From NCBI GenBank assembly GCA_041917295.1, contig JAYRXX010000006.1:16876-80875 (forward strand): a stretch of 64,000 nt of DNA, read 5' to 3'. Shown here in pieces: positions 29,901 through 50,500 of the stretch (position 1 is the stretch's first letter; each line of letters starts with the position of its first letter). The notes under the pieces are model-generated. The model was not told the DNA's origin. It did no database searches and saw nothing but the letters and a program-made list of their open reading frames with translations. The position numbers were made by a program, and so were the translations under genes. This DNA is from Elusimicrobiota bacterium (lineage in GTDB: Bacteria > Elusimicrobiota > Elusimicrobia > FEN-1173).

Positions 29901-32627
29901 TGACATGAACCAGGGGAGATGGCTTAAAGTAATCACTTTCAAACTTGAAATGCGTTCAGGCGGAATTCTCTGCAAAATAGACTGAATATCTTCTAGGTAT
30001 TGGAACGGAGTAGTTTCCCAACCTTTTACTTCCAAGCCAGGGAAATGCGCTTGAATTTCATTTACCTTATCCATCTTTTTTCCCATCAGCTTTATTTTCC
30101 AATTAATAAAATGAGGAATGTTAACCAAATCAAAAACCAAGTGGACCGTTGGAACGACGAGCACAATATGGGCCAAATAAATGTCCTGCACAAGAATTGC
30201 CAGTTCGAAAATGGAGTTAAACCCAACAAACGGAAATAACAGGTACAGCATTAAAACAATTCGCCGGATTCTTAAATTGGGAGGGTTTTTGTCATCGATT
30301 TGTGACTCGAGGAAGTCGTGAAAGTAAGAAAATAACAGCAAAAACGGTGTACTCACCCAAAAGGGGGTGCTAACAGAAATCACCACCAAAATTGGGATTT
30401 CAATCACCAGCCCGACAATTCCAATCAAGTCCGCATGTTTGGTCAATGCCTGACCATATTTGTTTTTCATTCGCTGGCCAAAAAATAACGATAAACTCCT
30501 AAACACCGCGGCGGGATTAGAAACAAACATAGGTTTGTCGGGATCAATGTTCCCTGCTTGGGGGCGGGAAAATTTGGATCTTATGAATTCCAAGGCCGAG
30601 TGCCACTTTGACGACTGGATGGAACTCTGGGTCGCTTGAGCGATAACGCCCCCTTCCGTTTTAACATCAAGTTCCGTGGCACTGTTGCCATTCTGGATTC
30701 GGACGGTGGCGCGGGTTTGAGAAATTTTCAAAAGAGACAAGGTTCCCAGCCCGCCCAAAGAAGCGTAAATGACGGGAACAGTGGATTCAGAGTCGCCCAC
30801 GGCGAGCCCCAGGAGGGCGGCAACAACAGCCACGAGGGCGGGCAAAAACGTGCGCGTCAATGTCAGTGGGGCGGGATGCTGTGACAGGAATAATTTCTCC
30901 CCCTCAAACAACCGCTCCAGAGGTGTTCTCTCCTGGGTGAAGACGGAGAGGTAGGTCGAACCTTGAACGGAATCTATCTTTTCAATTTTTGGAACATACG
31001 AAATAACCGTGGCCCCCGTTTGGGTCAACAGATCGGCCATGCCTTCGGCGTGGAAACCGCCGGTGACCAACAGGCCGATAGGTGGAGAGAATGTGGCGGA
31101 TTTTGGATCTAGGTCCAGGGCCGCCAAAAGATTTTGGGCCATGGCCGTGTCTCGGGCTTCGGCTTCCCGGTAAAACGATTCGAAAGAGGCGAGCACCCCG
31201 TCGTTTGCGAGCGGAGAGAAAAAAACTTCCAGGTTTCCTTTCCCCCCTTCATATTCCTTCCATTCCGGCGGGGTTAAACTGAAATCCACCAGTTTGGATG
31301 TCAGCCAGGCTTGGCGCGACTGGGCAGCCAGGGCTTTCTCTTCCGAAGTGGGCGCCAGTGCGTCGTAGGCGGCTTTTTCCAGAGAGGACATTTCGTTCAA
31401 TAATTTTTCCGCGTCGATCCCGTCGCAGAGAAGAACATATCGAACATACTCGTCCATGGCGGGGTAATCCGACAGGCGGATCCCTTTTTTCGCGCAGGTT
31501 TCTCTGAGTTGTCCGTAGAAGTCCCCGTACCGCAGTTCGCCCGTTCGATAGGCTACGCTTTGGGCCATCAGCTCGTTGATCTCTTGTGTGCTGAGAAAGT
31601 TCGTCAGCTTTTCAATCAGCCGGGATCGTTCGGCTTCCACCTGTTTAAAGTCGAGGGATCGCTCCGTGTTTAAAGCCTGCGTCAATTTGTCGACGTTCCG
31701 TAACGAAGAAGACTGGATTCCGGCTAACCCCATGCCGGAATGACGGGAGTAGTTGTTCTCCTTCCTTGAAACGATTTCCACCAGCACGCCCACATAGTCG
31801 CCCAAGGACACGCTGTCGGCTCGATATCCCGACACGGTCTCGTCAAGGGCCAAAAGGGCAGGTGAAAAAACCGATTTCTTCTGCTCGTCAATTTTCAATT
31901 GGTGGGCTTTGATCAGTCGGCGGGTTTCGTCCAGTTTCGGGGCGGAATCTTTGTAGGCCTGGACGTTGGCGGCGTAATGGACGGGATCGTCGATGCCCAG
32001 GATGCGGGGCAGTTTGCCCGATGCCGTCAAGGCCGCGTGGATGGGGCCGGAAATCTTGTTTTCCCTCAACAGATAATCCGCTGTCAGTTCAACGGCTTTC
32101 CTGTTGGGGAAATCCACAAAGGGCTGGAGGGCAATGTCTTCGGTGGATCCCTCCAGGGCCACAAGGCCCACCTTTCCGGAATTCAACAAAGTCGCCACCG
32201 TCTCCCGGATATTTTTCTGGGCTTCGGCGTTCATGTGAACGTCTTGGATGTGGATCACCACCGGCCCACGTGCACCGGCGTTTTTCCCAAGGGAGACCTT
32301 TCGCACGCTCCCGTGGACGGGAGAGAGCGCGGTCAAAAGATCGGCGTGACTTTTTAAAAAGGATTTAGGGAGTGACCGAACAACCGATGGGGTGAGCGAC
32401 GAACGAACCATTTGCGGCGAAGGAAATTGCGCCGCCAGGTTGTCCCCCGCTCGGTGTCCAAGCGGAAGAGAAGCCAATACACTGGGAGACGTTCGCCGAG
32501 CCACCTGGCGCCGTTGGTCCCAAAAACTCTTTTCCGGCTGATACGCAAACAGGCTCTGGGTGGCCAGGAGGGCCCCAGAAATCACAAAACCCGCGACTTT
32601 CTTTGCATCGAGCGTGGGACGTTTCAC
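26988..32627 (-). CDS. Giant A: 1879-aa exported modular protein (signal peptide, TIKI/TraB-like module, TM bundles, HExxH peptidase-like domain)
   Basis: Uninterrupted ORF from GTG 32627; signal-like N-terminus ending SLFA; QDVH/EG/RD..M/GGFH motifs; HEIGH at 29799-29813; several hydrophobic bundles. Confidence 0.85.
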   Translation of the reverse strand: MKRPTLDAKKVAGFVISGALLATQSLFAYQPEKSFWDQRRQVARRTSPSVLASLPLGHRAGDNLAAQFPSPQMVRSSLTPSVVRSLPKSFLKSHADLLTALSPVHGSVRKVSLGKNAGARGPVVIHIQDVHMNAEAQKNIRETVATLLNSGKVGLVALEGSTEDIALQPFVDFPNRKAVELTADYLLRENKISGPIHAALTASGKLPRILGIDDPVHYAANVQAYKDSAPKLDETRRLIKAHQLKIDEQKKSVFSPALLALDETVSGYRADSVSLGDYVGVLVEIVSRKENNYSRHSGMGLAGIQSSSLRNVDKLTQALNTERSLDFKQVEAERSRLIEKLTNFLSTQEINELMAQSVAYRTGELRYGDFYGQLRETCAKKGIRLSDYPAMDEYVRYVLLCDGIDAEKLLNEMSSLEKAAYDALAPTSEEKALAAQSRQAWLTSKLVDFSLTPPEWKEYEGGKGNLEVFFSPLANDGVLASFESFYREAEARDTAMAQNLLAALDLDPKSATFSPPIGLLVTGGFHAEGMADLLTQTGATVISYVPKIEKIDSVQGSTYLSVFTQERTPLERLFEGEKLFLSQHPAPLTLTRTFLPALVAVVAALLGLAVGDSESTVPVIYASLGGLGTLSLLKISQTRATVRIQNGNSATELDVKTEGGVIAQATQSSIQSSKWHSALEFIRSKFSRPQAGNIDPDKPMFVSNPAAVFRSLSLFFGQRMKNKYGQALTKHADLIGIVGLVIEIPILVVISVSTPFWVSTPFLLLFSYFHDFLESQIDDKNPPNLRIRRIVLMLYLLFPFVGFNSIFELAILVQDIYLAHIVLVVPTVHLVFDLVNIPHFINWKIKLMGKKMDKVNEIQAHFPGLEVKGWETTPFQYLEDIQSILQRIPPERISSLKVITLSHLPWFMSFRFGGSFSYDGHLIVRVSPWRGRFRNVFAHEIGHALHHSNPDSLHYIEDLAWEIKDNPTIIDEILSKLIPGYLHTPQQNKSGMFVSAYSLTHSMEHYAELIRVCLLYPQEMNKREELADVKKRLSSYLGVDFNKPVFNDVFETVSINWLRISFLLSLWVHLCFLFPQQGLIFSLLPFIFGFFYSRFNYLFERYFGNVISKSFAKLLINLRSVKFVPAFPDARIKLNNIMKLALYGSIAIILSFIVGLLILIPIPQYQYVRHIGDLSFDTEQVLVFTEGQKYRARYYKQDYRIDRLATNYKDIDGDIEVHRAGERLASFYESFKSLPVQRDLGFADPNELRIATVIQWMIHNHQERLTYVPNPKDAVLNQLGYLSEFVNNIEFRYEYRAKRDGATEANKQPLVIVATIRNTNGSKPVTDSAKPGTSVIVAQSSAKAYLEPTTDLANMGISVANETSPVEKPLGKPQGPSVLVRDPSITPADVDRVKKLFVERTKTLVERDIPRLVMRSHRPTEFEITLFHRFRFVAGLKYNAVETLKGVYAKSDDFFSPLYEVNDSLREIFLKGANIKKPLDPESGRGTSLWGLKFAEWMGSKVDPKQGSERFGAAYKRFAALIEWSFSAKVAFWGFMGTLAFAGTAFGWLMAPVAGLVYGILFFGSHFIPESLAPVTKVKVGVVQALLMGVIYGVLISVTPYLLGAVPLLGIPEFGVLAGGAVWALAGLLHHSFDKENLRKEGQEAAWKLIKQLSHVQGAFEVVMPGIHNGHTEEIVGNGNSLPEWLTKTLSRLKTDKEFRMGFLGVVQTAIAQENVSGSSLNLLSALVMAATGQPIAHVHILGNSQEQELQTLQGLIEREGKTSSGFSVALVVSESQRIKFKTMIDMFEARGGAVFSVDIQDHGWSKEVLVDLDNKMAPFLAKANGIVATVGENVGINRTAVEALNPDSKLRTALMNALTLTEVVETFLRFLRHLASNA

Positions 32628-32660
32628 ACCCCGATTCTACCACGCCCGCCCAGAAGATCC

Positions 32661-32689
32661 CCTTAAGAACTTGTAACAAAACAGTAAAC
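32661..32689 (-). promoter_or_regulatory. Conserved upstream element of giant A: TTTACT-N5-GTTACA-N4-CTTAAGG
   Basis: Same three blocks and spacing as 47451-47478; ends 33 nt upstream of the start codon. Confidence 0.7.
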
Positions 32690-32792
32690 GCGGGGCCCCC
32701 GGGGAGTTCCCCATTTCACCGAGAGTAAAAGGATGCAAACGGTATAGGCCATACCGCCCGAAAAGATTGTTTCCGTTAAATCGCGGTTTTGA

Positions 32793-33071
32793 TCAACATG
32801 TCCCTTTAAAGGCGGGGATACTTGTAAATTTCGGCAAGAACAATGGGCGGTTTTTTGTTCTCCCCAACAGGAGCCCGCTTCCAAAAAAAGGAGGGATCCG
32901 CAACAAGGCCTTCTGATCTTCCCAAATATCCCAATTGAAATACCCCCCGGGGGATGAGGGCAAAAGACTCTTCGCCAACGTGATTTTCCCTACCTGCCGC
33001 GGATCGGCGATAAACGCCATTTTCTTTTCTTCCGCCAACAATCGTTTCATTTCCGAGGTCAGATAGCGCAC
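32793..33071 (-). pseudogene. Degraded AAA_14-type ATP-binding protein fragment
   Basis: KMAFIADPRQVGKIT (decayed GPRQVGKTT) and YFNWD; a Walker-B-like remnant IVLAEIYKYPRL lies in another frame after a T run and is followed by a stop. Confidence 0.7.
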
Positions 33072-33085
33072 AGCTATACTCTATA

Positions 33086-33123
33086 TAGCCCTATAAAAAA
33101 GTCTCGACTTTTTAATAGGGCTA
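33086..33123. terminator. AT-rich near-perfect palindrome just downstream of the sulfite reductase gene
   Basis: TAGCCCTATAAAAAAGTC-TC-GACTTTTTAATAGGGCTA: 18-bp arms, one mismatch, 2-nt loop. Confidence 0.5.
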
Positions 33124-33131
33124 GAGAGAGT

Positions 33132-35363
33132 TTACGCGGCGCATTCGCCCACGCCGATGTCGGGTTTGAAGTCGGTGGTTTCGCCCCAATCGAAATACAG
33201 AGTTGGATTTTCCGCATAGGGGGGCAACGTGGTGAATTCCTGAACCAAATCTTTTACCCGTGTTTTTCCCACCCGGTCGAACCAATCATTAAACGTCTCC
33301 CCGGATTTTTTTTCTACTTTAAATGCTCCGATCACTTTTTTGACCGCGTCGGGCACACGCCGGGCCGGGAGAGCCCCGATCACTTGACCAAAGCGCGCTT
33401 CTCCTTCTTTGGTGAACCCGCCGGCCAGCATCATGTAATGGGGCACGGGCCGATCGTTGATCTTTCGGTAGGTCCCATAAAAACCGAGACTGCCAATGTG
33501 GTGTTGTCCGCAACTGTTGGTGCATCCGGAAATTTTAATGTGAACGCCTTCCATGTCCACGTCGGCCGACAACCCGTCGGTAAACAACCCGCCGATGGCT
33601 TTGGCCAGTTCCCGCGATTTGGTCACGGCAATTTGGCAGGTGTCCGCGCCAGGGCAACGGGTGATGTCGGATAACCGGTTCCCCCCCGCGGTGGCCAACC
33701 CGGCTTTCACCAAGGCGTTGTAAACCGTCGGCAAATGCTCGTTTCGAATCCATCGCAACAAGAAGTTTTGTTCCACCGTCGTGCGCAACCGCCCGCCGTT
33801 CAACCGCCGCGACAGATCCGCCAACGCGCGCATTTGGCCCACCGTGATGTCGCCCAAAGGAAGAACCACCGTGGCCCAACTGTAACCCGCTTGACGTTGC
33901 GCGGCCACGTTCGTGGCCTTCCAACGGTCAAACCCCGGCGCGGGGGGTTCCACGGCGACGGATCCCGCCGCCAAAGCCGGCGCGGTTTCTTCCGTCACAG
34001 GAACCGTCCAATCGATGGATCCGGCCCGGGTGGTTAAGACGGCACGCCGTTCGGCTTGAAACTTCTTGCGAAATTCATCGGCCCCCCACTTCTTAACCAA
34101 AAACTTAATCCGGGCGTGGAGCTTGTCGGTTCGGTCGCCGAACCGATCGAACATCCGCACCACGGTTTCGATCGTCGGCATTAAAAGGTCCGCGGGGGTG
34201 AACTCTTCCAACCGAATCGCCACCTGGGGCGTCGCACCCAAACCGCCGCCCACGTAGGTGCGAAACCCGCGCACGCCGTTGCGGATTTCCGCCACAAACG
34301 CCATGTCGTGGATGGGCGTCAGGGCATAATCCGTGGGGGTGCTTTCAAACGCAATTTTGAATTTGCGGGGCAAGTTTTGGCTCAGCGGGTTGCGAAGAAA
34401 AAACTTAAACGCCGCGTCGGCGTACGGGGCCACGTCAAACACATCGTCCGGATGAACCCCCGAGTATGGGTTGGCCGTGATGTTTCGAACCGTGTTGCCG
34501 CACCCTTCCCGCGGCGTCAAACCGGACTCGGCCAAACGGCGAATGACCTTCGGCGTGTCTTCCAAAGGAACCATGTGAATCTGCAAATTCTGACGGGTGG
34601 TGAAATGACCGATCTTGGATGGGGCAAATGTTTCGGTCACGTCAGCCATGGCTTCCAGCTGATCGGGCGTGAGTTTTCCGAAAGGGACCTTGATGCGAAT
34701 CATTTGTTTGTCCACTTGGTTGCGGATGCCGTAAATGCCGTTGTTGAGGCGAAACCGCCGAAAGTCGTCCATTTCCATTTTGCCGGCTTTCAAGGCGCGG
34801 ATGTTTTCCTCGGCTTGCCGGATTTCATTTTCAACCGATTCGGGTAGGGCGTAAGGCATGGACGACTCCTTGATTAACTCAATGGGTTCCTCAATAAACG
34901 GCGCCGATTCCTCGTCGCGAAACCAGGAACGGGCCTCATCAAACCGGCCTTTTTTTACCGACACGATTACGTTGGACCAACCGGCCAACAACGGTTGGGC
35001 CGCGTCGGTGGCGCTGGGCCGCGCCGGGTGGTCGGGATGGGTGTGCAGAACCCCCACCAAATCCAACCCGTCCTTTTCGGCTTCCAAAACCGCCCGGTTA
35101 AACGCCGCCGGGTCCATCACAAATTCGAACTCACCCTCTGTATCGGCCCGCGCTCCCAACGTGTCCCGGGCCGTATCCAATACACTGGGCCGCGCGGATG
35201 TTTTTTCGCGCAAAAGGTTCGCCAGCGGGACAAACCGTTCCACACGCCGGACCCCTCCCGGCATAAACCGTCCCACCAAAACGCCGCACCCTTCGTAAGG
35301 GTAACAGGACTGGGACCACTCCCGAAGAAATTCCCGAACCGACGAACTCCACACCAAACTCAT
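33132..35363 (-). CDS. Mec/JAB (MPN+) metallopeptidase fused in frame to a ferredoxin-dependent siroheme sulfite/nitrite reductase
   Basis: N-terminal YPYEGCG and HTHPDHPARPSATD (JAMM HxHx7Sx2D); from M169: FTTRQNLQIH, GCGNTVRN, LPRKFK, CPGADTC and SGCTNSCGQH cluster/siroheme ligands. Confidence 0.88.
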   Translation of the reverse strand: MSLVWSSSVREFLREWSQSCYPYEGCGVLVGRFMPGGVRRVERFVPLANLLREKTSARPSVLDTARDTLGARADTEGEFEFVMDPAAFNRAVLEAEKDGLDLVGVLHTHPDHPARPSATDAAQPLLAGWSNVIVSVKKGRFDEARSWFRDEESAPFIEEPIELIKESSMPYALPESVENEIRQAEENIRALKAGKMEMDDFRRFRLNNGIYGIRNQVDKQMIRIKVPFGKLTPDQLEAMADVTETFAPSKIGHFTTRQNLQIHMVPLEDTPKVIRRLAESGLTPREGCGNTVRNITANPYSGVHPDDVFDVAPYADAAFKFFLRNPLSQNLPRKFKIAFESTPTDYALTPIHDMAFVAEIRNGVRGFRTYVGGGLGATPQVAIRLEEFTPADLLMPTIETVVRMFDRFGDRTDKLHARIKFLVKKWGADEFRKKFQAERRAVLTTRAGSIDWTVPVTEETAPALAAGSVAVEPPAPGFDRWKATNVAAQRQAGYSWATVVLPLGDITVGQMRALADLSRRLNGGRLRTTVEQNFLLRWIRNEHLPTVYNALVKAGLATAGGNRLSDITRCPGADTCQIAVTKSRELAKAIGGLFTDGLSADVDMEGVHIKISGCTNSCGQHHIGSLGFYGTYRKINDRPVPHYMMLAGGFTKEGEARFGQVIGALPARRVPDAVKKVIGAFKVEKKSGETFNDWFDRVGKTRVKDLVQEFTTLPPYAENPTLYFDWGETTDFKPDIGVGECAA

Positions 35364-36310
35364 AAATCGTGCCCTTTCATGTAATCCTCAAAGTTGTCCA
35401 ACAAGTCCCCCCAGTAGCGCGTGTGAAGATAGCGTTCCCCCGAGTCGGGAAGAACCGTCACGATCACGCCTTCCTTGAGCCCATGAGCCACTTCAAACAC
35501 ACCGTGGACCGCGGCGCCGCACGAATAGCCCACCAAAATGCCTTCTTCCCGGGCCATGCGACAACACATTTCGTAGGCGTCTTCCGTGAACACAGACACC
35601 TTGCGATCGTGCACCCGAGGATCGTAGATACCCGGCACAATCGACGTTTCCATGTGTTTCAAACCCTCCAACCCGTGCAACGGCGTGGCGGGCTCAACAG
35701 CGATAATCTGGATGGCCGGGTTTAATTCTTTCAACCGCCGGCCGGTTCCCATCAGTGTGCCGCTGGTGCCGATCCCCGCCACAAAATGGGTGATGCGCCC
35801 TTCGGTTTGACGCCAAATTTCTTCGGCGGTGGTTTTGTAATGGGCCCTCCAGTTATTGGGATTGTTATACTGGTCGGGCATGTAGTAACGACCGGGATGG
35901 GCCTCGTAAATTCGGTGGGATTCCAGTTGGGCGCCGTCGGTGCCTTCCATCGGGTCGGTAAAAGTCACCTTCGCGCCGAAGGCTTCGATCAACCGGCTTT
36001 TTTCCGAGGCGTTTTGGGGCATCACCAACTGAACCCGAATCCCCAACGCGGCGCCAATCATGGCGTAGGCGATTCCTGTGTTGCCCGACGTGGAATCCAA
36101 CAAAATTTTATCTTTCGTCAGCTCCCCAGAGGCGATGGCTTCCAACATCATGTTTTTGGCGGCGCGGTCTTTCACCGACCCGCCGGGGTTCATGAACTCC
36201 GCTTTCGCAAAAACCGACACGCCCTCCGGAACCCACCGGGACAACCGATCCAATCGCAGAAGAGGGGTGTTCCCAATCCGTTCCAGCAACCCCACGCCCA
36301 GGGTGGTCAT
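35360..36310 (-). CDS. cysM: PLP-dependent cysteine synthase family protein (CysM-like)
   Basis: IGNTPL, NPGGSVKDR (PLP lysine), TSGNTG, GIGTSGT, LPDSGERY. Confidence 0.88.
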   Translation of the reverse strand: MTTLGVGLLERIGNTPLLRLDRLSRWVPEGVSVFAKAEFMNPGGSVKDRAAKNMMLEAIASGELTKDKILLDSTSGNTGIAYAMIGAALGIRVQLVMPQNASEKSRLIEAFGAKVTFTDPMEGTDGAQLESHRIYEAHPGRYYMPDQYNNPNNWRAHYKTTAEEIWRQTEGRITHFVAGIGTSGTLMGTGRRLKELNPAIQIIAVEPATPLHGLEGLKHMETSIVPGIYDPRVHDRKVSVFTEDAYEMCCRMAREEGILVGYSCGAAVHGVFEVAHGLKEGVIVTVLPDSGERYLHTRYWGDLLDNFEDYMKGHDL

Positions 36311-37299
36311 GGGATCCCCAACGACTTGGAAATCTCGTCGGCCTCGCGATTTTTGGCCAACCCCCGCCGGTAAAGATGCGTCACCGCCGGTTGAGTGATC
36401 CCCAACAAGTCGGCCACATCAATTTTGCGCATGCCGCACCGCTCCGACAACAAATACGATGCCATCGATCGCGCCTCCGCCCCGATCCGGGTTGATTTTC
36501 CCCGCCTCGACAACGTCTTTTCCGGCAGGCCAAAATAAGTTTCGATCCCCCGAATAAAACGGTCGGCCAAAACCGGATCCGGGGCCTTGTTCCGAACCGC
36601 TGAGGCTGAAGGCAAAACGCTTTCAACGAACGCGCGTCCCCCCAACACCCGGGAGTCGAACGATCCCGCCGCGTTCCGGCCCACAACCACATCCATCCCC
36701 CGGGCACTGCGGACCAACCCGCCACCAGACAAATCCGGCTGGGATTTTTTCCTTTCGGCCACGTGCGCGGCGTAGTTTTTAATACCCGTCGGACCACGCC
36801 CCCCAAACGCCTCCCACACCGCGTCCACCGCCTGCCAGGAGGCCTTTTCCAGCCCCAACAGGGCCCGATGGCCGCTCCACGGATAGGATTCCAAAGCGTC
36901 CAAGGAGCCCACCGTGTTTTCTTTCAAAGGAATCAAATGAACGTAAGCCACCAAATCTTTAAAAAAGACCGAGCGGTCGCATACGGTGGACTTGTAGCGG
37001 TTTTTGAACAAGCGCCCGGAACGATTGTGTTGCCGGTTAAAATACCCCGCGTATCGTGTGGACAGACGGTTCATCAATTCCGACAATGGCCGGGACCCCG
37101 TTTCGAGCAGAACGTGAAAATGCGTGGGCAAAAGCGCCCAGGCGTAACAGGTAAACCCGCCCTCTTTAATTAACTCCGCCAACGCGTCTCGAAACACAGC
37201 GTAGTCGGACCGGTCAATAAATAATTTCTGCCGATCGTTGCCCCGGTTGATCACATGATGCAACAGCCCCGGCGCGTCCAAACGGGCTTGGCGGGGCAC
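36307..37299 (-). mobile_element. Y1/HUH transposase-like gene (RAYT/IS200-related) with C-terminal DnaA-C-like HTH
   Basis: HHVINRGNDRQKLF, LLPTHFHVL (HUH), GRLFKNRYKS, YVHL.P, YPWSG; no IS ends visible; stop overlaps the cysM ATG. Confidence 0.8.
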
Positions 37300-37307
37300 A
37301 GGAGATC

Positions 37308-38465
37308 TCAGTATTGAGGGACAGACGGGTCGATCTCTTCTGACCAGGCGCGGATCCCGCCTTTGACGTTCGAGAGTTTTTTAAACCCCATCTGTTTGAG
37401 GATGTGAATGGCTTTGGCACTGCGCACCCCCGACCGGCAATGAACGACGATATCGTCGGCGGTGTCCAGCTCGTTGGCGCGAACCGCTACGTCGGCCAGC
37501 GGAATCAAACGTGCACCGGGCAAACGAGCGATGTCGTATTCGCTGGGTTCGCGCACATCCAACAGCGTGAACTTGTCTTTGCGGTCCATGCGGGCTTTCA
37601 GTTCTTTTACGGTAATTTCGACCAAGGAATCCCCCTGCGTTGCGGACGGTTCGGAACCCCGACCGACGCCGCAAAACTGGTCGTAATCGACCAACTCGGT
37701 GATGGTCGGCCGATCCCCGCACACCGGGCAATGGGGGTTCCGTCTAATTTTAAGTTCATCAAACGACATGTCCAGCGCGTTAAACAGCAACAACCGCCCC
37801 ACCAACGGACGGCCTTTACCTATAATTAGTTTAATGGTTTCGGTGGCTTGAATCAGGCCCACCAGCCCCGGCAAAATTCCCAGCACGCCGCCTTCCGCGC
37901 ACGAGGGCACTTCGCCCGGTGGAGGGGGTTCCGGATACAAGCACCGGTAGCAGGGGCTCTCCGGGTCCCCCGGCTTAAACACCGTGGCTTGGCCGTCGAA
38001 CCGAAAAATCGACGCGTAAACATTGGGCTTCTTTAAAAACACGCAGGAATCGTTGGTGAGGTAGCGGGTTTGAAAATTGTCGGTTCCGTCGACCACGATG
38101 TCGTAGTTTTTAACAATATCCAAGGCCACATCGCGGCGAAACGGGATGTTGTATGTTTTGACGTTCACGTTGGGGTTGATGTCGCGGATGGTTTCCCGGG
38201 CGCTTTCCACTTTAAGTTTGCCCACGTCGTCGGTGCCGTGAATCACCTGCCGGTGAAGGTTGGTGTGGTCCACCACATCAAAATCCACCAGTCCCAATGT
38301 TCCCACCCCGGCCGCTGACAAATACAACGCGTTGGGGGACCCCAACCCGCCGGATCCGATCAAAAGGACTTTCGCATCCATCAATTTTTCTTGGCCTTCC
38401 ACGCCCACCTCGGGCATAATCAAATGCCGCGAGTAACGCAAAACCTGTTCCTGGTTCAATTTCAC
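37308..38465 (-). CDS. moeZ: MoeZ-type adenylyltransferase/sulfurtransferase (ThiF plus rhodanese)
   Basis: RYSRHLIMPEVG, GSGGLGSP, CYRCLYPEPP, CPVCG; C-terminal rhodanese DVREPSE...HCRSGVRS; GTG start overlapping the gph stop. Confidence 0.93.
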   Translation of the reverse strand: MKLNQEQVLRYSRHLIMPEVGVEGQEKLMDAKVLLIGSGGLGSPNALYLSAAGVGTLGLVDFDVVDHTNLHRQVIHGTDDVGKLKVESARETIRDINPNVNVKTYNIPFRRDVALDIVKNYDIVVDGTDNFQTRYLTNDSCVFLKKPNVYASIFRFDGQATVFKPGDPESPCYRCLYPEPPPPGEVPSCAEGGVLGILPGLVGLIQATETIKLIIGKGRPLVGRLLLFNALDMSFDELKIRRNPHCPVCGDRPTITELVDYDQFCGVGRGSEPSATQGDSLVEITVKELKARMDRKDKFTLLDVREPSEYDIARLPGARLIPLADVAVRANELDTADDIVVHCRSGVRSAKAIHILKQMGFKKLSNVKGGIRAWSEEIDPSVPQY

Positions 38466-39100
38466 GACAGCACCTCCCGCAGTTCGGCTAACGAACCGAT
38501 CAAATAGTCTGGTGATAACGCCGCCAAATCCGGACCGGGCCGAAACCCGTATGTCACCGCGGCCGCCCGCACGCCCGCCGACCGGGCCGCGCGAATGTCC
38601 AAGGGGCTGTCGCCCACCATCACCGATGTTTCCCGGGGCGCCCCCAACCGGCGAAGGGCTTCCCACAGGGGTTCGGGATCCGGCTTGCGGGTGGGCAGTG
38701 TATCCCCCGCGATCACCACCGTAAAAAACCCGTCCAGACCCGTGGCTCGCAAGGTTTTTTCCGTGTGCGCCATTGGTTTATTGGTGACCACCGCCATCGC
38801 ACGCCCGCTTAACGCCCTCAACGTTTCAATCACGCCGGGATACAACGCGGTTGTATCGGTGCAATGGTCCAGGTAATAGGGCAAAAACAGGTCCAATGCC
38901 CGTTTCATTGACGCGTCGTCCAGGGGCCCGGCGGCCCGAATCAACAACTGACGAACCCCATCGCCTACCATCCGAGCAACACTGTCCACGGACAACGTGG
39001 GACGTCCCAATCGTTCCAACGTAAAATTAACCCCTTCGGCGATATCCCGACGGCTGTCCACCAGGGTTCCGTCCAAATCGAACAACAACGCTCCCGACAT
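38462..39100 (-). CDS. gph: HAD-family phosphoglycolate phosphatase-like hydrolase
   Basis: FDLDGTLVDS, VVTNKP, KPDPEP, MVGDSPLD. Confidence 0.85.
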   Translation of the reverse strand: MSGALLFDLDGTLVDSRRDIAEGVNFTLERLGRPTLSVDSVARMVGDGVRQLLIRAAGPLDDASMKRALDLFLPYYLDHCTDTTALYPGVIETLRALSGRAMAVVTNKPMAHTEKTLRATGLDGFFTVVIAGDTLPTRKPDPEPLWEALRRLGAPRETSVMVGDSPLDIRAARSAGVRAAAVTYGFRPGPDLAALSPDYLIGSLAELREVLS

Positions 39101-39699: not shown

Positions 39700-39706
39700 G
39701 GGATTT

Positions 39707-40117: not shown

Positions 40118-40148
40118 GGGAATATATTACTTTAATTGGAGCCTTTCG

Positions 40149-40601: not shown

Positions 40602-40642
40602 GGACTCCTCCTTTTCTTCTGAAAGAGGATTATATCATTTCG

Positions 40643-40762: not shown

Positions 40763-40793
40763 ATTTTGGGTAAAAACGAAGAGGGAAACGGGG

Positions 40794-43675: not shown

Positions 43676-43676
43676 A

Positions 43677-44054: not shown

Positions 44055-44077
44055 AGAGGAAGAGGGATAAGGTGTCC

Positions 44078-44392
44078 CTATCGCGCTTTCGTCCGGGCGG
44101 GAGCGGGCTTTGCGGCGGGTTTGGTGTCGGGCTTGACCTCGACGGCCGGGGCCGGTTTTTCGGCCAAGCGGGCTTTCAACGCTTCCAAACTCTCGCGGTT
44201 TTGGGCTTGGATTTTGGCAATCCGCCGGGCCGCCAGCCACTGGCGCAAACTGGTATCAACCACATAAAAAACGCCCAGGGCCATTAAAAAACCCGAAAGA
44301 CTTATCCCGATTAAGAACCTCTTCTTGGAGGGGATCAGCAAAGAAACAATGACCCCGATGATGCCCAAACTTAAGATTGCCAACCCAAACAT
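44078..44392 (-). CDS. Small membrane protein with Pro/Ala/Lys-rich tail
   Basis: Two TM segments, a short coiled coil and a low-complexity tail; start at MFGLA. Confidence 0.6.
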   Translation of the reverse strand: MFGLAILSLGIIGVIVSLLIPSKKRFLIGISLSGFLMALGVFYVVDTSLRQWLAARRIAKIQAQNRESLEALKARLAEKPAPAVEVKPDTKPAAKPAPARTKAR

Positions 44393-44519
44393 GTTGCTCG
44401 TTAATATGAACACAAGTCCCCCCTGGTTAAGCCCCAGACCCCGGAGCCGATGTGGCACCCATTTATATTAACAGACAAACCGCTCCGCGACAAGGCAAAT
44501 TTTGTTACACTGAAACACC

Positions 44520-45962: not shown

Positions 45963-46065
45963 ATCATTGCGTCTCCCCATTTTTTTATTCTACGATTGTT
46001 TTGATTTTTTGCGGACTTCGGCAGGGCCACAGAGCGGAATTGGGAATCCATCGCGGAGGACACGT

Positions 46066-46746
46066 ATGCTAAAAAAACGGATCATGGTGGTCGACGACGA
46101 TCGAGACATTCGCCGTCTGGTGGAAAGCATTTTGGCCAAAGAAGGCTTTGTGACCATCGGCGCCGACAGCGGGGCGGACGCGCTCAAAAAAGTGGAAAAC
46201 TCCAAACCCGACTTGATCATATTGGACTTGCAACTGCCGGACAAAGACGGTTTTGAAGTCTGCAAAATTTTACGGTCCGACCCGACCACAAAAACGATTC
46301 CCGTGGTGTTTTTGACGGTGCAAAATTTGGATTCGTATAAAATCGCGGGGTTGGAAATGGGCGCCGACGATTACATCACCAAACCGTTCAACCAAACCGA
46401 ACTGGTGGCGCGGGTGAAAGCGGTTCTGCGCCGAGCCGAATGGCGCGACACCAAAGATTCGCCGGTCAAGGAAGGCCCCTTGAGCGTGGACATGGAAAAA
46501 CACACCGTGATCATGGACGGAAAATCCCTTAACCTGGCGCCCAAAGAGTTTGATTTGTTGCTGACGTTGATGCGCAACCAAGGCAAAGTGTTGACTCGGC
46601 CGGAACTTTCCGAATCGGTGTGGGGCCAAGAGTATTCCAACACCACCCGAACCGTGGATGTCCACGTGGGCCGACTGCGGCGCAAACTGGGAAAACACGG
46701 AGACCGGGTCCGAACCGTCGAACGGATCGGTTACCGCTTCGAGTAA
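46066..46746 (+). CDS. OmpR/PhoB-family response regulator
   Basis: MVVDDD, IILDLQLP, GADDYITKPF; winged helix with RTVDVHVGRLRRKL and TVERIGYRF; GGAGGA RBS before ATG 46066. Confidence 0.95.
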   Translation: MLKKRIMVVDDDRDIRRLVESILAKEGFVTIGADSGADALKKVENSKPDLIILDLQLPDKDGFEVCKILRSDPTTKTIPVVFLTVQNLDSYKIAGLEMGADDYITKPFNQTELVARVKAVLRRAEWRDTKDSPVKEGPLSVDMEKHTVIMDGKSLNLAPKEFDLLLTLMRNQGKVLTRPELSESVWGQEYSNTTRTVDVHVGRLRRKLGKHGDRVRTVERIGYRFE

Positions 46747-46847
46747 CCCCCGCTTTCCCCCCATCGTTTAACGCTCTTTGGCCGTCCTTGTGGCGCGTTT
46801 TAGGCCGAAATCCTCCCGTATTTTTTACCCCAAAGCAAAACCCGACA

Positions 46848-46879
46848 CGTCACTATTTGCGTTGACGCAAATAGTGACG
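46848..46879. repeat. Perfect 15-bp inverted repeat with 2-nt loop between convergent genes
   Basis: CGTCACTATTTGCGT-TG-ACGCAAATAGTGACG. Confidence 0.75.
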
Positions 46880-46914
46880 CCGCCATGTGGAACGTGTTCC
46901 CCCACGGACACGAA

Positions 46915-47295
46915 TCAAATCGGCCGTGTGTGGATGATGTTGTGAATGCTCTGCGCGAATGAAGAATAGCGGACGGGTTTGGCCATGGCGGCTTGGACAT
47001 CGATGGTTTGGAGTTTGCGTTCGTCGGCCCAGCCGGTGACGATCACCACGGGCGTGCCGTTGGTGGCCGGATGGCCGCGAAGTTGTTTTAAAACGTCATA
47101 CCCGTTGACAAAGGGCATTTCCAAATCCAAGGTGATCAAGTGGGGACGAAAATCGATGGCCGCGCGCAAGGCGTCCCGGGGGTCGGTGACACACCGCACT
47201 TCATATCCCATGGACTCGCAAAAGTCCCCCAACAAGTCGGCCATTCCGATATCGTCTTCAATCACCAAAATCCGGCGTGGATCGAGCATGATCAT
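46915..47295 (-). CDS. Single-domain response regulator (CheY-like receiver)
   Basis: ILVIEDD, LITLDLEMP, VVIVTG, MAKPV. Confidence 0.9.
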   Translation of the reverse strand: MIMLDPRRILVIEDDIGMADLLGDFCESMGYEVRCVTDPRDALRAAIDFRPHLITLDLEMPFVNGYDVLKQLRGHPATNGTPVVIVTGWADERKLQTIDVQAAMAKPVRYSSFAQSIHNIIHTRPI

Positions 47296-47352
47296 CCCCC
47301 CTCACGCTAAAATTACCACTTGCCCAATCCTACACCCGATTTGATTTTCTCG

Positions 47353-47370
47353 CCTTAAGAAGTTGTAACA
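47353..47370 (-). promoter_or_regulatory. Inverted partial copy of the giant-gene element (GTTACA-N4-CTTAAGG) upstream of the receiver gene
   Basis: Plus strand CCTTAAGAAGTTGTAACA, differing at 1 of 18 positions from CCTTAAGAACTTGTAACA at 32661. Confidence 0.6.
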
Positions 47371-47450
47371 GCGTCTTTCGCCCCTTGCGAACCAATGAAG
47401 CACGATTCCCCCCCCCCCACATTAATTTAATTAACTATGTCCCATGCGAT

Positions 47451-47478
47451 TTTACAATTCCGTTACAAACTCTTAAGG
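47451..47478 (+). promoter_or_regulatory. Conserved upstream element of giant B: TTTACA-N5-GTTACA-N4-CTTAAGG
   Basis: Matches the giant A element; ends 36 nt upstream of ATG 47515. Confidence 0.7.
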
Positions 47479-47514
47479 GAATCTTTAGATTGGTTTGATA
47501 AAATTCCCGTCATT

Positions 47515-50500
47515 ATGAAGCTTTTCTTGCGGATGGTACGGCCTGGCCTTGGGGGGATGATATCGTTTTCTCTTCTGCTTACAGGCCCCCTCGCCCCCCT
47601 GGCCCAGGCCCGAACAGAAGAAAACAAAGCCAATTATTGGACAGCAAGGAAAAGCGTTGCCCGACAACGTTCTCTCCCCACCCAGCCAGTGAAGGCGCCC
47701 TTTCCAAATTCCCCGCACTTAAGAGGTTCCGAGCCGGTAAAGGAAACAAGCAAAAATTGGTTTGAAGTGGCCAGTTACACGCCCGTGTTCGGTCCAAGAT
47801 CCTGGAAGCGGGGCAACGTGCTGGTCCCGTTCGTGACGATCATCCAAGACGCCCACGATAATTACGAAGCCCAACTGGCTCTTAGCCGCACCCTGGCCGA
47901 ACTGGCCGACAAGGAAAAAGACGGCCCCCTCCTGGTGTGCGTCGAAGGCGCCTGGGGGCCCCTTTCCACCGAAATTTTCAAACCACTGGATCCAGAATTA
48001 CGCAAACAGAAAGCCGACCAATTACTTAAGCGTCACATTATCACCGGGGAAGAATTTTTATCAATAGTTCATCCAGGTTTAATTCAACTGGTGGGGGTAG
48101 ACGATCCCGATCTTCATAAAAAGAACACCGTGGCGCGGGAACTGGTGGAAACGCATCGATGGTCCACGACCGAACGAATGAAGATCCTCCAAATCAATAT
48201 GGAGCGATTAAAAAAGGCCGTTTACCCCCCCCGTATGCGATCGATTGATGAAATCAGACTGAAATACCAAACGGGGATATTGAACTCCCAAGAGTTTGCT
48301 AAAAAAATAGTCCCTTATGCCTCAAAAGAGTGGTGGCTAAAAAATTTCCCCCTTTTGTATCAACTCTCATCCCTCGACGCAGATGGTCTGGAAAAATCAC
48401 CAACCCGGGCGGAAATTGAAGAATGGGTGACAACCCTTTCAAACACCGATCTACAAAACAAGATTGATTGGTTGCTTCATCAAAAAAAAATAGACCTACC
48501 CGTCTTGGCCAATGAAATGGAAAAAGCACCGGACCAACTTTTACGGATGGACAAACGGTTTCAACTGTTGGTTGAACTTGATCAATGGATTTCCCTGGCT
48601 GACCGTCTTATTTCCCTCAAAATGACTCCGGAGGATTTGAACCAATTCGATCGGATCGAACCCAGTCAATCCATTGAAGACGTCGCAAACAAAATAAACA
48701 TTATCTCCCGAAAAAACAATGTTCGTGTTTTACCCCTCCCTCAAGCCCGTCGGCCCAATGAAGAAACGACGTGGCAAGCGGCCAAATCATTTTATCGGAT
48801 CGCCAAAAAGCGCGACAACGCCATGGCCACCAACACTCTGCGTCAAGCCAGAAAACATGACAAAAGGAAAGTCGTCCTTATTGCGGGAGGATTCCACACT
48901 CCTGGGATCTCGAGACTCTTTCGTCTCCAACAAAATTTCAACCATTCTCTGTGTCCGAAATTTTCATCGAGCGTAACAAAAGCCCCGCGGCCAACGCTCC
49001 GAAAAAAAAGTCTTTTTCAAAAGAGCATCCCTGAAAACAAACGCAAATTCCGTTTATCCCCAACCCTCACCCCGTTTTTCCGATTTATAGTCTTCATGTC
49101 GATCAGCTCCTTGGCCCTCGCGGCGGGCGGTGGGACCGGATCAGATTGGATTGAATATCTCGTTTTGGCATCCACCATCAGCGACCCCTTTTTAAGGCGT
49201 TTAATATCCCGAAAACCCATAGCCACACCTCCGGAAGAAATATTAATAAACAGTGACGCCGCTGTCGGCAAACTCAAAAATGACTTTTTGGCAATATACC
49301 GCTCTCAAAAGATCCCCGAAGCGATTAAGTTGCTGGACGAAGTTTCTTCTTACAGCGATTTAAGAGCCTATTTTTTATTATCTCTGTTAGAAAAAACTGA
49401 ACAACAAGCACTATTGGAATCAATGCCCCCAGCCTTGAAAAGAAGGGTTTTGAACGGTCTCCCGGACTACGAATATCACGCTTACATCAGAGGGATTGAA
49501 AAAACAATTCAGTGTATTTCTTCCCTTAAAGAAATGGATGATTTGTGGAAAAAGATAATCAGTGACGTGCGAGAGGGTAGTCCAAACAATAAAACTGTTT
49601 TAAGCTACTTAAATGCAATTACAGAAGCAAAAGAACGGGTGAGTATTATTCTTAACAAACTCGAATCACAAGTGGCCTCTCTTAAATCCATTGCAAGTGA
49701 CCCCGGTTCAATTCCCAAATTAATCCCTCCACAAGAAACAACCGATTTTATTTTAACCAGAGTAAATCCAGCGCTTAATACGAGAACCATTGCCCATGGG
49801 CATCTTTATTCAATCTTTTCTCATTTGGAGTACGCAGAAAAATGGTTGGGAACCAAATTGAGTCCGTTCGGAGGGATGGCCGCCTTTGGATTGGGTAGTT
49901 CGGGATATATTAACCGAACGCCACCCGCTCCAACGGCGCTGGAGTCTTCCGTTGCATCTTTACACCTTGCCAACGGAGCGAAAGAACGGTTAAGAGACGA
50001 ACTCTACTTTCTGAGGCACCCCGAAGCCACCTACCGGACTGTCCATCAAGACTGGGTGGAAACGATATCCAACGCAACCCGTCAAACAAAAATTAAGGAT
50101 TTAAAGGCACTTTCTCCCCGATCCAGAGATGATGATGAGATGGAAAGCGAGCGCTTAAAAAAAATTGAGTCCTTTTCCCACCGGATGGGAAATGGAGTCG
50201 AGGATCTTTCATTAAAGGCTCAAGCCTTTCTCGAAACGATTGAGGGGCCGCCTTGGAGTTTAACGCAATCCCATTATTTGGCTGAACTGGAGAGAGTCAG
50301 CGGCTATTTTGAGGGACCGGTTCTCGACCGACGAGCAACGGTTGTCCTTCCCAACCCATCCGACATTCAACTTTTTGCTTCGGATTTGGCGGTCCTCTAT
50401 CGTCATCAAGGCAAGGCAAAAAAACTCGTGATATTGGACATTGGTCGCATCCAAACAAGCCATCACGACCAATCCTCGATTGAAAATTTTTTGACCGCCT

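Follow-up and report, generated by a model that had tools for sequence, protein, structure and literature searches.

The two giant proteins encoded in the 64,000-nucleotide stretch of Elusimicrobiota DNA analyzed here (the window), designated giant A and giant B, have in common an N-terminal module of approximately 550 residues from the start that carries the same motifs in the same order. This module, hereafter the head, is probably exported, is the constant N-terminal part of a very large paralogous family and is probably a domain of the Tiki/Ere/ChaN type. We lean modestly towards the explanation that the head is a Tiki-type hydrolase with a periplasmic job of its own that was reused by the giants.

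BLASTP aligned the two proteins in two blocks, A 1-289 with B 33-298 (E 2e-13) and A 395-534 with B 343-495 (E 1e-5), a likeness that, judged from these alignments, is far beyond chance. The family profile matched only giants A and B among the reading frames of the window, both of which belong to its training set. All seven motif pairs quoted in the initial annotation were found where it had placed them, with the order kept. Giant A contains QDVH (128-131), VALEG (156-160), GIDD (211-214), FYREAEARDTAM (485-496), GGFH (523-526) and VPK (545-547), all within 30987-32246 of the window on the minus strand. The counterparts in giant B are QDAH (137-140), VCVEG (167-171), ITG (202-204), GVDD (220-223), FYRIAKKRDNAM (452-463), GGFH (484-487) and CPK (506-508), all within 47845-48960. 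The span 30980-48960 given there takes in two separate modules on opposite strands. Approximately 15 kb of unrelated housekeeping genes lie between them. The shared region also begins earlier than had been proposed, since it includes the signal-peptide-like N-terminus as well as an E-x-N-[FY]-W motif (residues 1-36 of giant A; from about Met27 of giant B). Since it opens at about Met27, the ATG annotated for giant B at 47437 is probably ~26 codons too far upstream. The features are listed below by window coordinates.

26988-32627, minus strand: giant A, 1879 aa.
32544-32627, minus strand: giant A residues 1-28, signal-peptide-like N-terminus in the translation, fitting the family N-terminal consensus; GTG start, K/R-rich start, 12-residue apolar core and SLFA preceding YQPE.
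32277-32543, minus strand: giant A residues 29-117, conserved E-x-x-F-W-x-x-R-R motif, low-complexity linker and beta0 (GSVRKVSLG; strand 6-12 of the AlphaFold model).
31980-32276, minus strand: giant A residues 118-216, N-terminal core half containing beta1-beta3, drawn from invariant columns and model secondary structure; the modeled strand ends carry D129-x-H131, E159-G160 and G211-x-D-D.
31197-31979, minus strand: giant A residues 217-477, all-helical inserted lobe of ~260 aa (model helices 115-375).
30978-31196, minus strand: giant A residues 478-550, C-terminal core half containing beta4-beta5, the region matched by PF04187; F-Y-x-x-A-x-x-R492-D helix, beta4 with G-G-F-H526 and beta5 with P-K.
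30873-30977, minus strand: giant A residues 551-585, post-core motif GSTYLSVFTQERTPLERLFEGEKLFL, from conservation among 19 giants.
30795-30851, minus strand: giant A residues 593-611, first post-head transmembrane segment; the same hydropathy scans indicate eight further segments beyond it.
47437-56991, plus strand: giant B, 3184 aa.
47515-47610, plus strand: giant B residues 27-58, segment resembling a signal peptide, probably with the true start, running from MKLFLRMVRPG to PLAPLAQA and followed by RTEEN; the alignment with giant A begins at B 33.
47818-48120, plus strand: giant B residues 128-228, N-terminal core half containing D138-x-H140, E170-G171 and G220-x-D-D.
48121-48762, plus strand: giant B residues 229-442, helical inserted lobe of 214 aa.
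48763-48972, plus strand: giant B residues 443-512, C-terminal core half containing F-Y-x-x-A-x-x-R459-D, G-G-F-H487 and C-P-K.
49066-49122, plus strand: giant B residues 544-562, by hydropathy the sole hydrophobic segment separating the head from the tandem Lon-like ATPase/protease units (Lon and AAA domains) that follow.

The head contains an invariant pentad consisting of Asp-x-His, Glu, Arg and His. The sequences Q-D-x-H, E-G, F-Y-x-x-A-x-x-R-[DNS] and G-G-[FY]-H are invariant in the head family, and three clades with about 20-25% identity to the head of giant B all keep D, H, E-G, G, Y, A, R and G-G-F-H without change. The Asp lies two residues before the His in 191 of 193 members; the His-to-Glu spacing is 28 in 183 of them (28 in giant A, 30 in giant B) and the Arg-to-His spacing is 28 in 134. 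The catalytic residues of EreC are E47, H50, E78, R261 and H289, with both spacings 28 (PMC7979712); the corresponding residues are H85 and E113 in Bcr135 and E3900, H3902, E3930 and H4030 in RRSP (PMC6254334). As read from the sequences, the invariant residues of the head fit the Ere/BcR135/RRSP catalytic set in order and spacing, and a fully invariant Ere-type pentad at 20-25% identity has the appearance of an active site. Traits of the Tiki superfamily are likewise present, with the first His after strand 1 and the Glu after strand 2, followed by an Arg helix (R-[ND]-x-x-M) and the second His in a strand-end G-x-x-H.

A search with the head profile returned 9,962 protein clusters at E<=1e-3, nearly all from Elusimicrobiota and Omnitrophota; 6,923 of them also pass E<=1e-30. 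Within these proteins the match sits between positions ~5 and ~600, and the majority of the top matches are 1,000-6,142 aa long. Every one of the 51 word-indexed homologues was from Elusimicrobia or Omnitrophica. The GTDB genomes contain at least 553 head loci, and 8 of the 80 loci listed belong to one MAG. Many genomes hold many copies of the head. The D-x-H motif was located in 79 of the 80 listed loci, where it lies 42-238 residues from the nearest upstream stop; for the 49 loci with full flanks this distance was 84-172 residues (median 131), and the frame was still open more than 1,080 residues downstream in 38 of these. Most of the top-matching proteins carry many membrane segments, and their tails are unrelated and mosaic, with up to 26 predicted membrane segments; some tails hold enzyme modules of a usually cytoplasmic kind. 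The modules are very diverse (Lon, NUDIX, inositol monophosphatase, adenylate kinase and sigma-70 region 4). A C-terminal end motif is common to 61% of the long members, so that both ends are constant. Omnitrophota also encode head-only relatives of about 535 aa that have an N-terminal membrane anchor and keep the pentad. Of five Omnitrophota contexts, three have the head-only gene upstream of glmS-rsmI-lpxA, and a fourth has it upstream of glmS, where the contig ends.

The N-terminus of the family is built like a Sec signal peptide in all three parts, beginning with Lys/Arg, continuing with an apolar run of 7-13 residues, too few for a membrane span, and closing with a conserved A-x-A-type box directly before E-x-N-F-W. 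The head-only relatives have a classical signal anchor of 19-22 residues preceded by a Lys/Arg-rich start. Both features speak against a cytoplasmic head. In that case the hydrophobic N-terminal stretch would tether the protein to the membrane or form an uncleaved anchor with the N-terminus outside, and the head would be a membrane-proximal hydrolase facing the side where the enzyme cargo lies. The charge distribution at the first strong post-head membrane segment points the other way: the mean Lys/Arg difference was -0.97 (n = 122 proteins) with the excess on the head side, and 79 of the 122 proteins had more Lys/Arg on that side (giant B, +5 vs 0), which under the positive-inside rule argues for a cytoplasmic head. 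Also in line with that location are one relative (P0053) in which an inositol-monophosphatase domain, usually cytoplasmic, follows the head without a membrane segment in between, the cytoplasmic location of the Ere enzymes, and a second weak hydrophobic stretch at once after the first post-head segment of giants A and B that makes a hairpin possible. A cytoplasmic head is in our judgment rather unlikely. The phrase conserved export module, under which the head was first described, is apt insofar as a predicted Sec-type signal peptide precedes the head, which is always N-terminal, and is otherwise not apt.

The AlphaFold models of the heads (pLDDT 88.7 for giant A and 79.0 for giant B) contain five or six strands in beta-alpha-beta order. 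In both models D-x-H, E-G, G-x-D-D and G-G-F-H lie right at the C-terminal ends of strands 1-4, and from these strand-end positions we infer that the pentad residues would cluster in one site. A helical block interrupts the core between the strand motifs (12 helices in giant A, 10 in giant B); in all relatives a block of 214-280 aa separates the Glu strand from the Arg helix, a placing that resembles the one in Ere enzymes. Neither model gave a match at E<=1e-3 when compared with the PDB by Foldseek, and the top 50 matches of model B were without any Tiki-superfamily structure. The matches were dominated by the helical lobe. For model A, ChaN (2g5g) had the highest probability, 0.35, and EreC (6xcs) had 0.20, neither of them significant; these two were the sole Tiki-superfamily structures among the matches listed, the rest being almost all helical proteins.

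The ChaN family (PF04187) was the only Pfam family to recur among the relatives, with matches in 23 of 35 full modules (E down to 6e-6) and, among spliced cores, in 15 of 21 (E down to 6e-7). The head of giant B matched with an E of 1.2e-4 over query residues 355-399, corresponding to B residues 444-488. None of the PF04187 matches on natural sequences for which a bit score was given reached the curated cut-off, the best having 26.8 bits against 27.7. The matches cover profile positions ~130-208 only, which is the C-terminal third (about 45-80 residues); the aligned part holds F-Y..A..R-[DN]..M followed by G-G-F-H, and the N-terminal half of the ChaN profile was unmatched. The TraB family (PF01963) touched 3 of 21 cores with an E of about 0.09, and PF05139 was not returned in the Pfam searches of the heads. 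No Pfam or NCBIfam model covers the module, and the NCBIfam search of the head was empty. No Ere, ChaN or RRSP chain was matched when PDB sequences were searched with the family profiles. The core alignment compared by hhalign with a YbaP/TraB alignment, which was shallow (14 sequences, at least 65% identical to YbaP), gave a probability of 4.4% (P 0.009) that was not significant. The Pfam matches held no competitor from enzyme families other than the Tiki type.

The fold named in the initial annotation (TIKI/TraB/EreA-ChaN) is probably right, being supported by the order and spacing of the pentad, the recurrence of PF04187 and the strand-end motifs of the two models, but not by the Foldseek, PDB-sequence and TraB-profile comparisons. 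These last results, together with the short, sub-threshold Pfam matches, agree with a head outside the Tiki superfamily, which would be a separate Rossmann-like alpha/beta domain with an Ere-like His/Glu/Arg/His set acquired by convergence. Against convergence, five functional residues agree in order and in two independent spacings of exactly 28, the modeled helical lobe is inserted at the same place, PF04187 matches most members with no competing enzyme family, and ChaN and EreC alone represent solved Tiki folds among the listed matches of model A. We therefore consider a non-Tiki origin quite unlikely.

Among known systems, the Ere enzymes (EreA-D) and BcR135/BcR136 (PF05139) show the same acid 2-3 residues before the His, the Glu at +28, the Arg and the His at +28, and have, as in the head models, an alpha/beta major lobe with a helical lobe between Glu and Arg. 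A helical minor lobe is present in both Ere and BcR135, and that of EreC is placed after the Glu strand and before the Arg helix (PMC7979712). The lobe of the head is far larger (214-280 aa) than the four-helix bundle of Ere, and whereas Ere is soluble with ~410 aa, the head follows a predicted signal peptide and fronts proteins of up to ~6,000 aa. ChaN, a haem-uptake lipoprotein of Campylobacter jejuni, is like the head extracytoplasmic if the signal peptide of the head is real. Proteins of the ChaN type bind haem cofacially and dimerize, and no enzyme activity is known for ChaN. It is without the helical minor lobe (PMC7979712) that the head has. TIKI1/2 and the TraB/PrgY/GumN family (PF01963), E. 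coli YbaP among them, have the same motif grammar as the head, as read from the YbaP alignment (strand x-x-x-His, strand Glu, R-[ND]-x-x-[MW], strand G-x-x-His). TIKI and PrgY are membrane-tethered and extracytoplasmic, as the head would be, and are anchored via C-terminal membrane segments. The His-to-Glu spacing is 26 in YbaP compared to 28 in most heads, and PF01963 has no helical lobe of the head's size. The RRSP of MARTX toxins and the C1-C2 region of PMT are Tiki-type domains within very long multi-domain proteins, as the head would be, and RRSP shows E-x-H, the Glu at +28 and a second His. RRSP, however, is itself cargo, carried inside the toxin and released into host cells, whereas here the N-terminal head is constant and the cargo varies. 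Neither RTX repeats, nearby type I secretion genes nor a sequence match were found. TIKI activity requires Co/Mn (PMC6254334), and EreC and RRSP are reported to be metal-independent (PMC7979712, PMC6254334). The Ere family is characterized by metal-independent hydrolysis of macrolactone esters. The His and Glu residues of the head could ligate a metal; since EreC and RRSP share the motifs of the head yet are metal-independent, the earlier designation of the head as a metalloenzyme was an over-reading.

In the explanation that we prefer, the shared region would be one domain of ~430 residues following the predicted Sec-type signal peptide and a short conserved linker, a Tiki-superfamily domain with erythromycin esterase/BcR135/ChaN as its nearest branch. 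The core would be a small alpha/beta sheet, interrupted after its third strand and ahead of the arginine helix by the all-helical lobe of 214-280 aa. The mechanism is presumably like that of Ere: by analogy with EreC, the first His (H131 in giant A, H140 in giant B), held by the Asp two residues ahead, would activate a water molecule to be positioned by the Glu 28-30 residues on (E159, E170) and by the second His (H526, H487). The Arg (R492, R459) would stabilize the oxyanion and the helical lobe would close over the substrate, in which an ester or peptide bond would be hydrolyzed; no metal requirement is claimed. The existence of membrane-anchored head-only versions suggests that the head has a job of its own. 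It would probably be a periplasmic hydrolase tethered to the membrane, with a peptide or a component of the envelope as its target, and the giants would reuse it as a common front end.

Alternatively, the head could act in cis, either as an autoprocessing protease cutting at the post-core motif or its own N-terminus, or as a docking unit plugging into an envelope partner like the N-terminal retention module of LapA-type giant adhesins. Its position, always N-terminal to unrelated cargo in long proteins, suits a role in protein making better than an independent enzyme activity; the shared C-terminal end motif of 61% of the long members also agrees with it, and Tiki removes N-terminal residues from Wnt. 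A 26-residue motif directly follows the core in the Elusimicrobia giants, with 12 positions invariant and 5 more almost so in 19 giants; however, giant B is without it. Weaker D-x-x-x-Y-x-x-L counterparts were seen by eye, unscored, in the C-termini of the head-only relatives, and the motif is therefore suggested to belong to the fold. The head-only proteins keep the active-site residues with no cargo to process, which weakens the autoprocessing reading; cytoplasmic cargo would be out of reach of a periplasmic head; and no secretion-system or partner genes were found in the window or conserved beside the relatives. The autoprocessing or docking unit put forward in the initial annotation is without direct support and strikes us as distinctly improbable. 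Equally doubtful is a ligand-binding or sensor domain with an outer-face, ChaN-like pocket for haem or another small molecule, reporting to or localising variable modules across the membrane as periplasmic sensor domains with many outputs do: the recurrence of a haem-binding family and the receptor-like layout (constant extracytoplasmic N-terminal module, membrane segments, diverse modules) agree with it, but the Ere-type pentad is invariant among such divergent clades, the many-spanning mosaic tails are unlike signalling proteins, and the copies in many genomes are numerous.

The giant membrane proteins described from Omnitrophota (West-Roberts et al. 2023 preprint; 2026 complete-genome preprint) occur in the same phyla and likewise combine a signal peptide, many membrane segments and scattered NUDIX, methyltransferase and AAA domains. 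In those preprints their N-terminal regions are mostly without identifiable domains, bar C39 or S8 peptidases, and the terms 'Tiki', 'erythromycin', 'PF04187' and 'conserved head' are absent from the text of both. The head is a constant front end in two little-studied phyla. A bolder proposal, which we regard as speculative and not probable, is that the head and the Ala-ending C-terminal tail mark a route, not described before, by which giant mosaic membrane proteins with several enzyme modules are made or sorted. The Tiki-like head would act as an enzyme in cis, being required for the insertion, anchoring, trimming or release of every giant, and would stem from a housekeeping hydrolase of the envelope, encoded by the head-only gene near glmS and lpxA, that was recruited as the universal front end. 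If true, Elusimicrobiota and Omnitrophota would possess a modular protein-building system with a universal front end.

The three very long reading frames of the window, designated giants A, B and C, are located as follows (window numbering).

Giant reading frames of the window
26988-32627, minus strand: giant A, 1879 aa, GTG start
47437-56991, plus strand: giant B, 3184 aa
57013-63954, minus strand: giant C, 2313 aa

The initial annotation described an N-terminal module shared by A and B over the single span 30980-48960. The similarity is real, but the span comprises two modules on opposite strands, residues ~120-550 of A and ~132-508 of B as covered by it, separated by ~15 kb in which the genes are of ordinary chromosomal kinds (a JAB-sulfite reductase fusion, a PLP enzyme, ThiF-rhodanese, a HAD hydrolase, GTP cyclohydrolase I, and a pair of histidine kinase and response regulator). 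The remainder of the window is also housekeeping, with genes for prolyl-tRNA synthetase, a P-type ATPase, Dxr and complex I. The homologues indicate an Elusimicrobia affiliation. The JAB-domain/sulfite-reductase fusion, PLP-dependent enzyme and ThiF-rhodanese form a cluster (33132-38666, minus strand) resembling those for sulfur-carrier-protein cysteine synthesis, in the middle of which lies a frame of 330 aa (36307-37299) that includes an IS200-type transposase domain. A Fic/DOC-family gene (25714-26946, plus strand) adjoins the 3' end of giant A in convergent orientation on the opposite strand.

All of the motifs originally quoted for the module were found in A and B in identical order. Comparison of A with B by BLASTP returned two segments, one with 25% identity (A 1-289 and B 33-298, E 2e-13) and the other further downstream (A 395-534 and B 343-495, E 1e-5), and the similarity begins at the N-terminus rather than at residue 120. 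Each protein opens with a segment resembling a signal peptide, after which comes an E-x-N-[FY]-W-type motif; this also suggests that the true start of B is near Met27. The domain as a whole is hereafter called the head. No shared head was found in giant C on comparison with A and B. An H-E-x-x-H zincin-like motif is present in giant A (FAHEIGHALHH, 29799-29813, minus strand), where Pfam matched it weakly to Peptidase_M78 (E 0.017) and to Peptidase_Mx (E 0.09), and in giant C (LVHEVGHIP, 57766-57780, minus strand).

Alignment of A and B with 33 homologues, 22-70% identical to A, revealed invariant residues comprising the Gln of A-E-A-Q, E-G, the Gly of G-x-D-D, one Asn, one Tyr, the Arg of A-R-D, and the G-G and His of G-G-F-H, with D-x-H nearly invariant. 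The set was kept in an alignment restricted to the core, the alpha/beta part that is split by a helical lobe, and in a third alignment to which a distant clade of head-only proteins was added. The putative catalytic set of five residues, here called the pentad, is assigned as follows.

Pentad residues
Giant A: D129, H131, E159, R492, H526
Giant B: D138, H140, E170, R459, H487

The Asp two residues before the first His is present in 191 of 193 family members; the spacing from the first His to the Glu is exactly 28 in 183 of them, and that from the Arg to the second His is exactly 28 in 134. Directly after the core of A lies the segment GSTYLSVFTQERTPLERLFEGEKLFL (30885-30962, minus strand), absent from B, with 12 invariant and 5 nearly invariant positions among 19 Elusimicrobia giants.

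It was proposed at the outset that the module resembles a TIKI/TraB/EreA-ChaN-fold metalloenzyme. This fold is that of the Tiki superfamily, which includes TraB_PrgY_gumN (PF01963), ChaN/Cofac_haem_bdg (PF04187) and Ere (PF05139). The catalytic residues of EreC are E47, H50, E78, R261 and H289, with both spacings 28 (PMC7979712), and the His-Glu spacing is likewise 28 in Bcr135 (H85/E113) and in RRSP (E3900/H3902/E3930/H4030), members of a fold with a parallel sheet flanked by helices (PMC6254334). A helical minor lobe is present in EreC and BcR135/136, whereas it is missing in ChaN, HopBA1 and PMT (PMC7979712). The head has a helical block, 214-280 residues long in its relatives, between the third strand and the Arg-bearing helix, and the minor lobe of the Ere enzymes must occupy this same place in sequence. 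That five residues, two spacings and one insertion point apparently agree, as read from sequences and predicted structures, is the strongest support for the assignment. Within the lobe, residues ~333-379 of A (~31491-31631, minus strand) fall in a region that weakly but recurrently matched the paired amphipathic helix domain PAH_ZNF598 of Pfam, in 13 of 35 relatives and with E 3e-5 at best; the matches probably reflect no more than helical resemblance.

Profile searches point in the same direction. PF04187 matched A with E 0.1 for the whole protein and 0.0077 for the module, and B with E 0.0018 and 1.2e-4, respectively. It was the only enzyme-fold family to recur across relatives. Among 35 full modules it matched 23, with E down to 6e-6, and among 21 spliced cores it matched 15, with E down to 6e-7; PF01963 touched three of the spliced cores with E ~0.09. 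The best printed score of PF04187 against a natural sequence, 26.8 bits, is below the curated cut-off of 27.7, and the match covers only the Arg helix and the G-G-F-H strand. An NCBIfam run on the giants and spliced cores gave no match to the head, and no Pfam or NCBIfam model covers it.

Confident AlphaFold models were built from the family alignments for A (pLDDT 88.7, pTM 0.84; the model ends inside the post-core motif) and B (pLDDT 79.0, pTM 0.76). Both predict the order strand with D-x-H, helix, strand with E-G, helices, strand with G-x-D-D, helical lobe, long Arg-bearing helix, strand with G-G-F-H, helix, and strand with P-K. The four conserved motifs are at the C-terminal ends of successive strands in both models. 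In doubly wound sheets the active site is found at the C-terminal strand ends, and from this topology the motifs would together make one site. Foldseek against the PDB gave no match at E<=1e-3 for either model, the weak matches being mostly to helical proteins drawn by the inserted lobe. For model A, ChaN (2g5g) had the top probability (0.35 over 118 columns) and EreC (6xcs) was also listed (0.20); for model B, Tiki-fold entries were absent among the best 50. Searches of PDB chain sequences with one protein (phmmer) and three family profiles found no Tiki-fold chain. Comparison with a YbaP/TraB alignment by hhalign gave a probability of 4.4%; this is a weak test, the alignment being shallow and the homologues listed for E. 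coli YbaP being close enterobacterial relatives only.

The motifs and spacings favour the proposed fold, for which Foldseek and the PDB-sequence searches gave no significant match. Taken with the profile matches, the motifs indicate that the head probably belongs to the Tiki superfamily. A calcineurin-type metallophosphoesterase, with D-x-H...G-D...G-N-H motifs, was rejected based on the absence of the later motifs, the lack of a Pfam match and the misfit of the beta-alpha-beta topology.

The head, with its invariant residues, its N-terminal position and its family, is established; the mechanism is a proposal. By analogy with EreC, His131, oriented by Asp129, would take a proton from a water held between Glu159 and His526, and Arg492 would steady the oxyanion. 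The substrate pocket would be formed by the helical lobe, which may alternate between open and closed states, and the bond cleaved would be an ester or peptide bond. TIKI requires Co or Mn whereas Ere and RRSP do not (PMC6254334, PMC7979712); the metal dependence of the head cannot be read from its sequence.

The family was delimited by searching 1.84 billion cluster representatives with the head profile, which matched 9,962 proteins at E<=1e-3 and 6,923 at E<=1e-30. In the best 150 of the 9,962, the profile aligns to positions ~5-600 of the protein, and protein lengths are mostly 1,000-6,142 aa. A scan covering one genome for each species located at least 553 loci, nearly all in Elusimicrobiota and Omnitrophota; among 80 loci listed, one genome contributed eight and another six. 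D-x-H is 42-238 residues past the nearest upstream stop in the 79 of 80 fetched loci where it was located, and in 49 loci with full flanks the distance is 84-172 residues (median 131), with the frame open for more than 1,080 residues downstream in 38.

What follows the head, here called the tail, is a mosaic. No relative of the B tail was found among 183 family members. The A tail shares with a few members, at differing positions, only its C-terminal domain and a membrane module (A 1480-1636, 27720-28190), the latter being present in six relatives at places that vary. In most tails, several membrane segments are predicted. Scattered single domains in 19 sampled giants included 4-alpha-glucanotransferase, glucosamine-6-phosphate isomerase, epimerase and inositol monophosphatase, as well as NUDIX, adenylate kinase, methyltransferases and sigma-70 region 4. 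The GC content is 0.41 within A (28000-30000) and 0.44 within B (48000-50000), compared with 0.55-0.59 in flanking housekeeping genes, a drop which together with the mosaic sharing suggests that tail pieces have been exchanged or acquired.

The head of B is nearest to ~535-aa Omnitrophota proteins in which a Lys/Arg-rich start is followed by a hydrophobic anchor of 19-22 residues and then by the head, the chain ending ~45 residues past G-G-F-H. Four of their genes are as follows, by genomic context.

Head-only genes (~535 aa)
L085, 10001-11602
L087, 10001-11605
L089, 6001-7590
L090, 6001-7614

These proteins keep the pentad, and their existence implies that the head has a function independent of cargo. 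In three of five contexts glmS, rsmI and lpxA are downstream, sometimes with one gene between, the upstream neighbours differing in one of the three; in a fourth (L089) the gene is upstream of glmS, where the contig ends. Head-only genes often adjoin gyrB-gyrA near dnaA. No conserved neighbourhood was found for the 700-aa Elusimicrobia and Omnitrophica relatives. The function of head-only proteins may, as a weak lead from gene context, be tied to envelope synthesis. The Tiki-superfamily member GumN is reportedly associated with exopolysaccharide gene clusters. BcR135/136 are also linked to such clusters (PMC7979712), in agreement with this lead. In L085 and L089 a PEP-utilizer-like gene (923-1139 aa) starts no more than 7 nt from the stop of the head gene, resembling a split longer protein.

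The head-only genes argue for a trans-acting, membrane-tethered putative hydrolase that has been reused as the front end of giants. The rival explanation, that the head acts in cis in the making of the giant protein, is kept alive by its constancy at the N-terminus and by a shared C-terminal end motif. C-terminal Ala occurs in 94 of 155 family proteins longer than 650 aa (61%, against a background of 9%), with the consensus L(-15), L/I(-11), K/R(-10), A(-8), R(-7), I/L/V(-5), A(-4), A(-1). Amphipathic termini of this kind end giant A (FLRFLRHLASNA, 26991-27035, minus strand) and giant C (HLKAMKRIGSDA, 57016-57060, minus strand), C having this ending without the head and B the head without this ending. 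A search for a common C-terminal domain across the family with jackhmmer linked sub-groups only, the last ~15 residues alone being shared. The Ala-final ending could be a sorting or degradation signal. An export domain for two-partner or type I secretion was rejected as the main reading, the tails having many membrane segments and the window no transporter genes.

The side of the membrane on which the head resides was also considered. The N-terminus resembles a Sec signal peptide: its start is rich in Lys/Arg, its apolar run spans 7-13 residues (mode 13), and a conserved A-x-A-type box stands immediately ahead of E-x-N-F-W. A periplasmic head is therefore slightly favoured. The single hydrophobic segment at B 544-562 would in that case bring the chain back to the cytoplasm, where the ATP-dependent Lon units of B must be. 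There are two such Lon-like ATPase/protease units.

Lon-like units of giant B
51208-52551, plus strand: first unit, with Walker A at 51382-51405 and no Ser motif as read from the sequence
54721-56100, plus strand: second unit, with serine motif KDGDSAG (55846-55860) and a candidate Lys

Lacking the Ser motif, the first unit has probably lost its protease activity. Near its C-terminus, B has a hydrophobic hairpin (residues 2996-3047). A cytoplasmic head is a tentative but serious alternative. In 79 of 122 proteins, the first strong membrane segment downstream of the head is flanked by more Lys/Arg on its head side than on the other (+5 versus 0 for B). In A and B, moreover, another weak hydrophobic stretch comes immediately afterwards, and in one relative an inositol-monophosphatase domain follows the head with no membrane segment between. 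The hydropathy and flanking-charge scans of topology disagree.

The giant proteins found in Omnitrophota and Elusimicrobiota pose a puzzle at present. One of two preprints on Omnitrophota giants states that their N-terminal regions are generally without identifiable domains, and the terms Tiki, erythromycin, PF04187 and conserved head were searched for in both and not found. A paper on huge proteins includes Elusimicrobia among the phyla most likely to have them, with no mention of a shared N-terminal module in the passages retrieved from it. Literature pairing Elusimicrobiota or Omnitrophota with the Tiki superfamily or erythromycin esterase was absent among the matches listed. As far as found, the role of a constant head in giant mosaic membrane proteins is undescribed.

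The head is the one constant part of approximately ten thousand protein clusters otherwise unrelated in sequence, for which a single profile provides a handle for cataloguing the family. The domain is recognisable and probably catalytic, five of its residues can be named, and as a soluble piece it lends itself to expression and assay. It would extend the Tiki/Ere/ChaN superfamily by a large branch of restricted taxonomic range whose helical lobe is unusually large, and it permits a direct test of whether the giants are processed, anchored or sorted via their front end.
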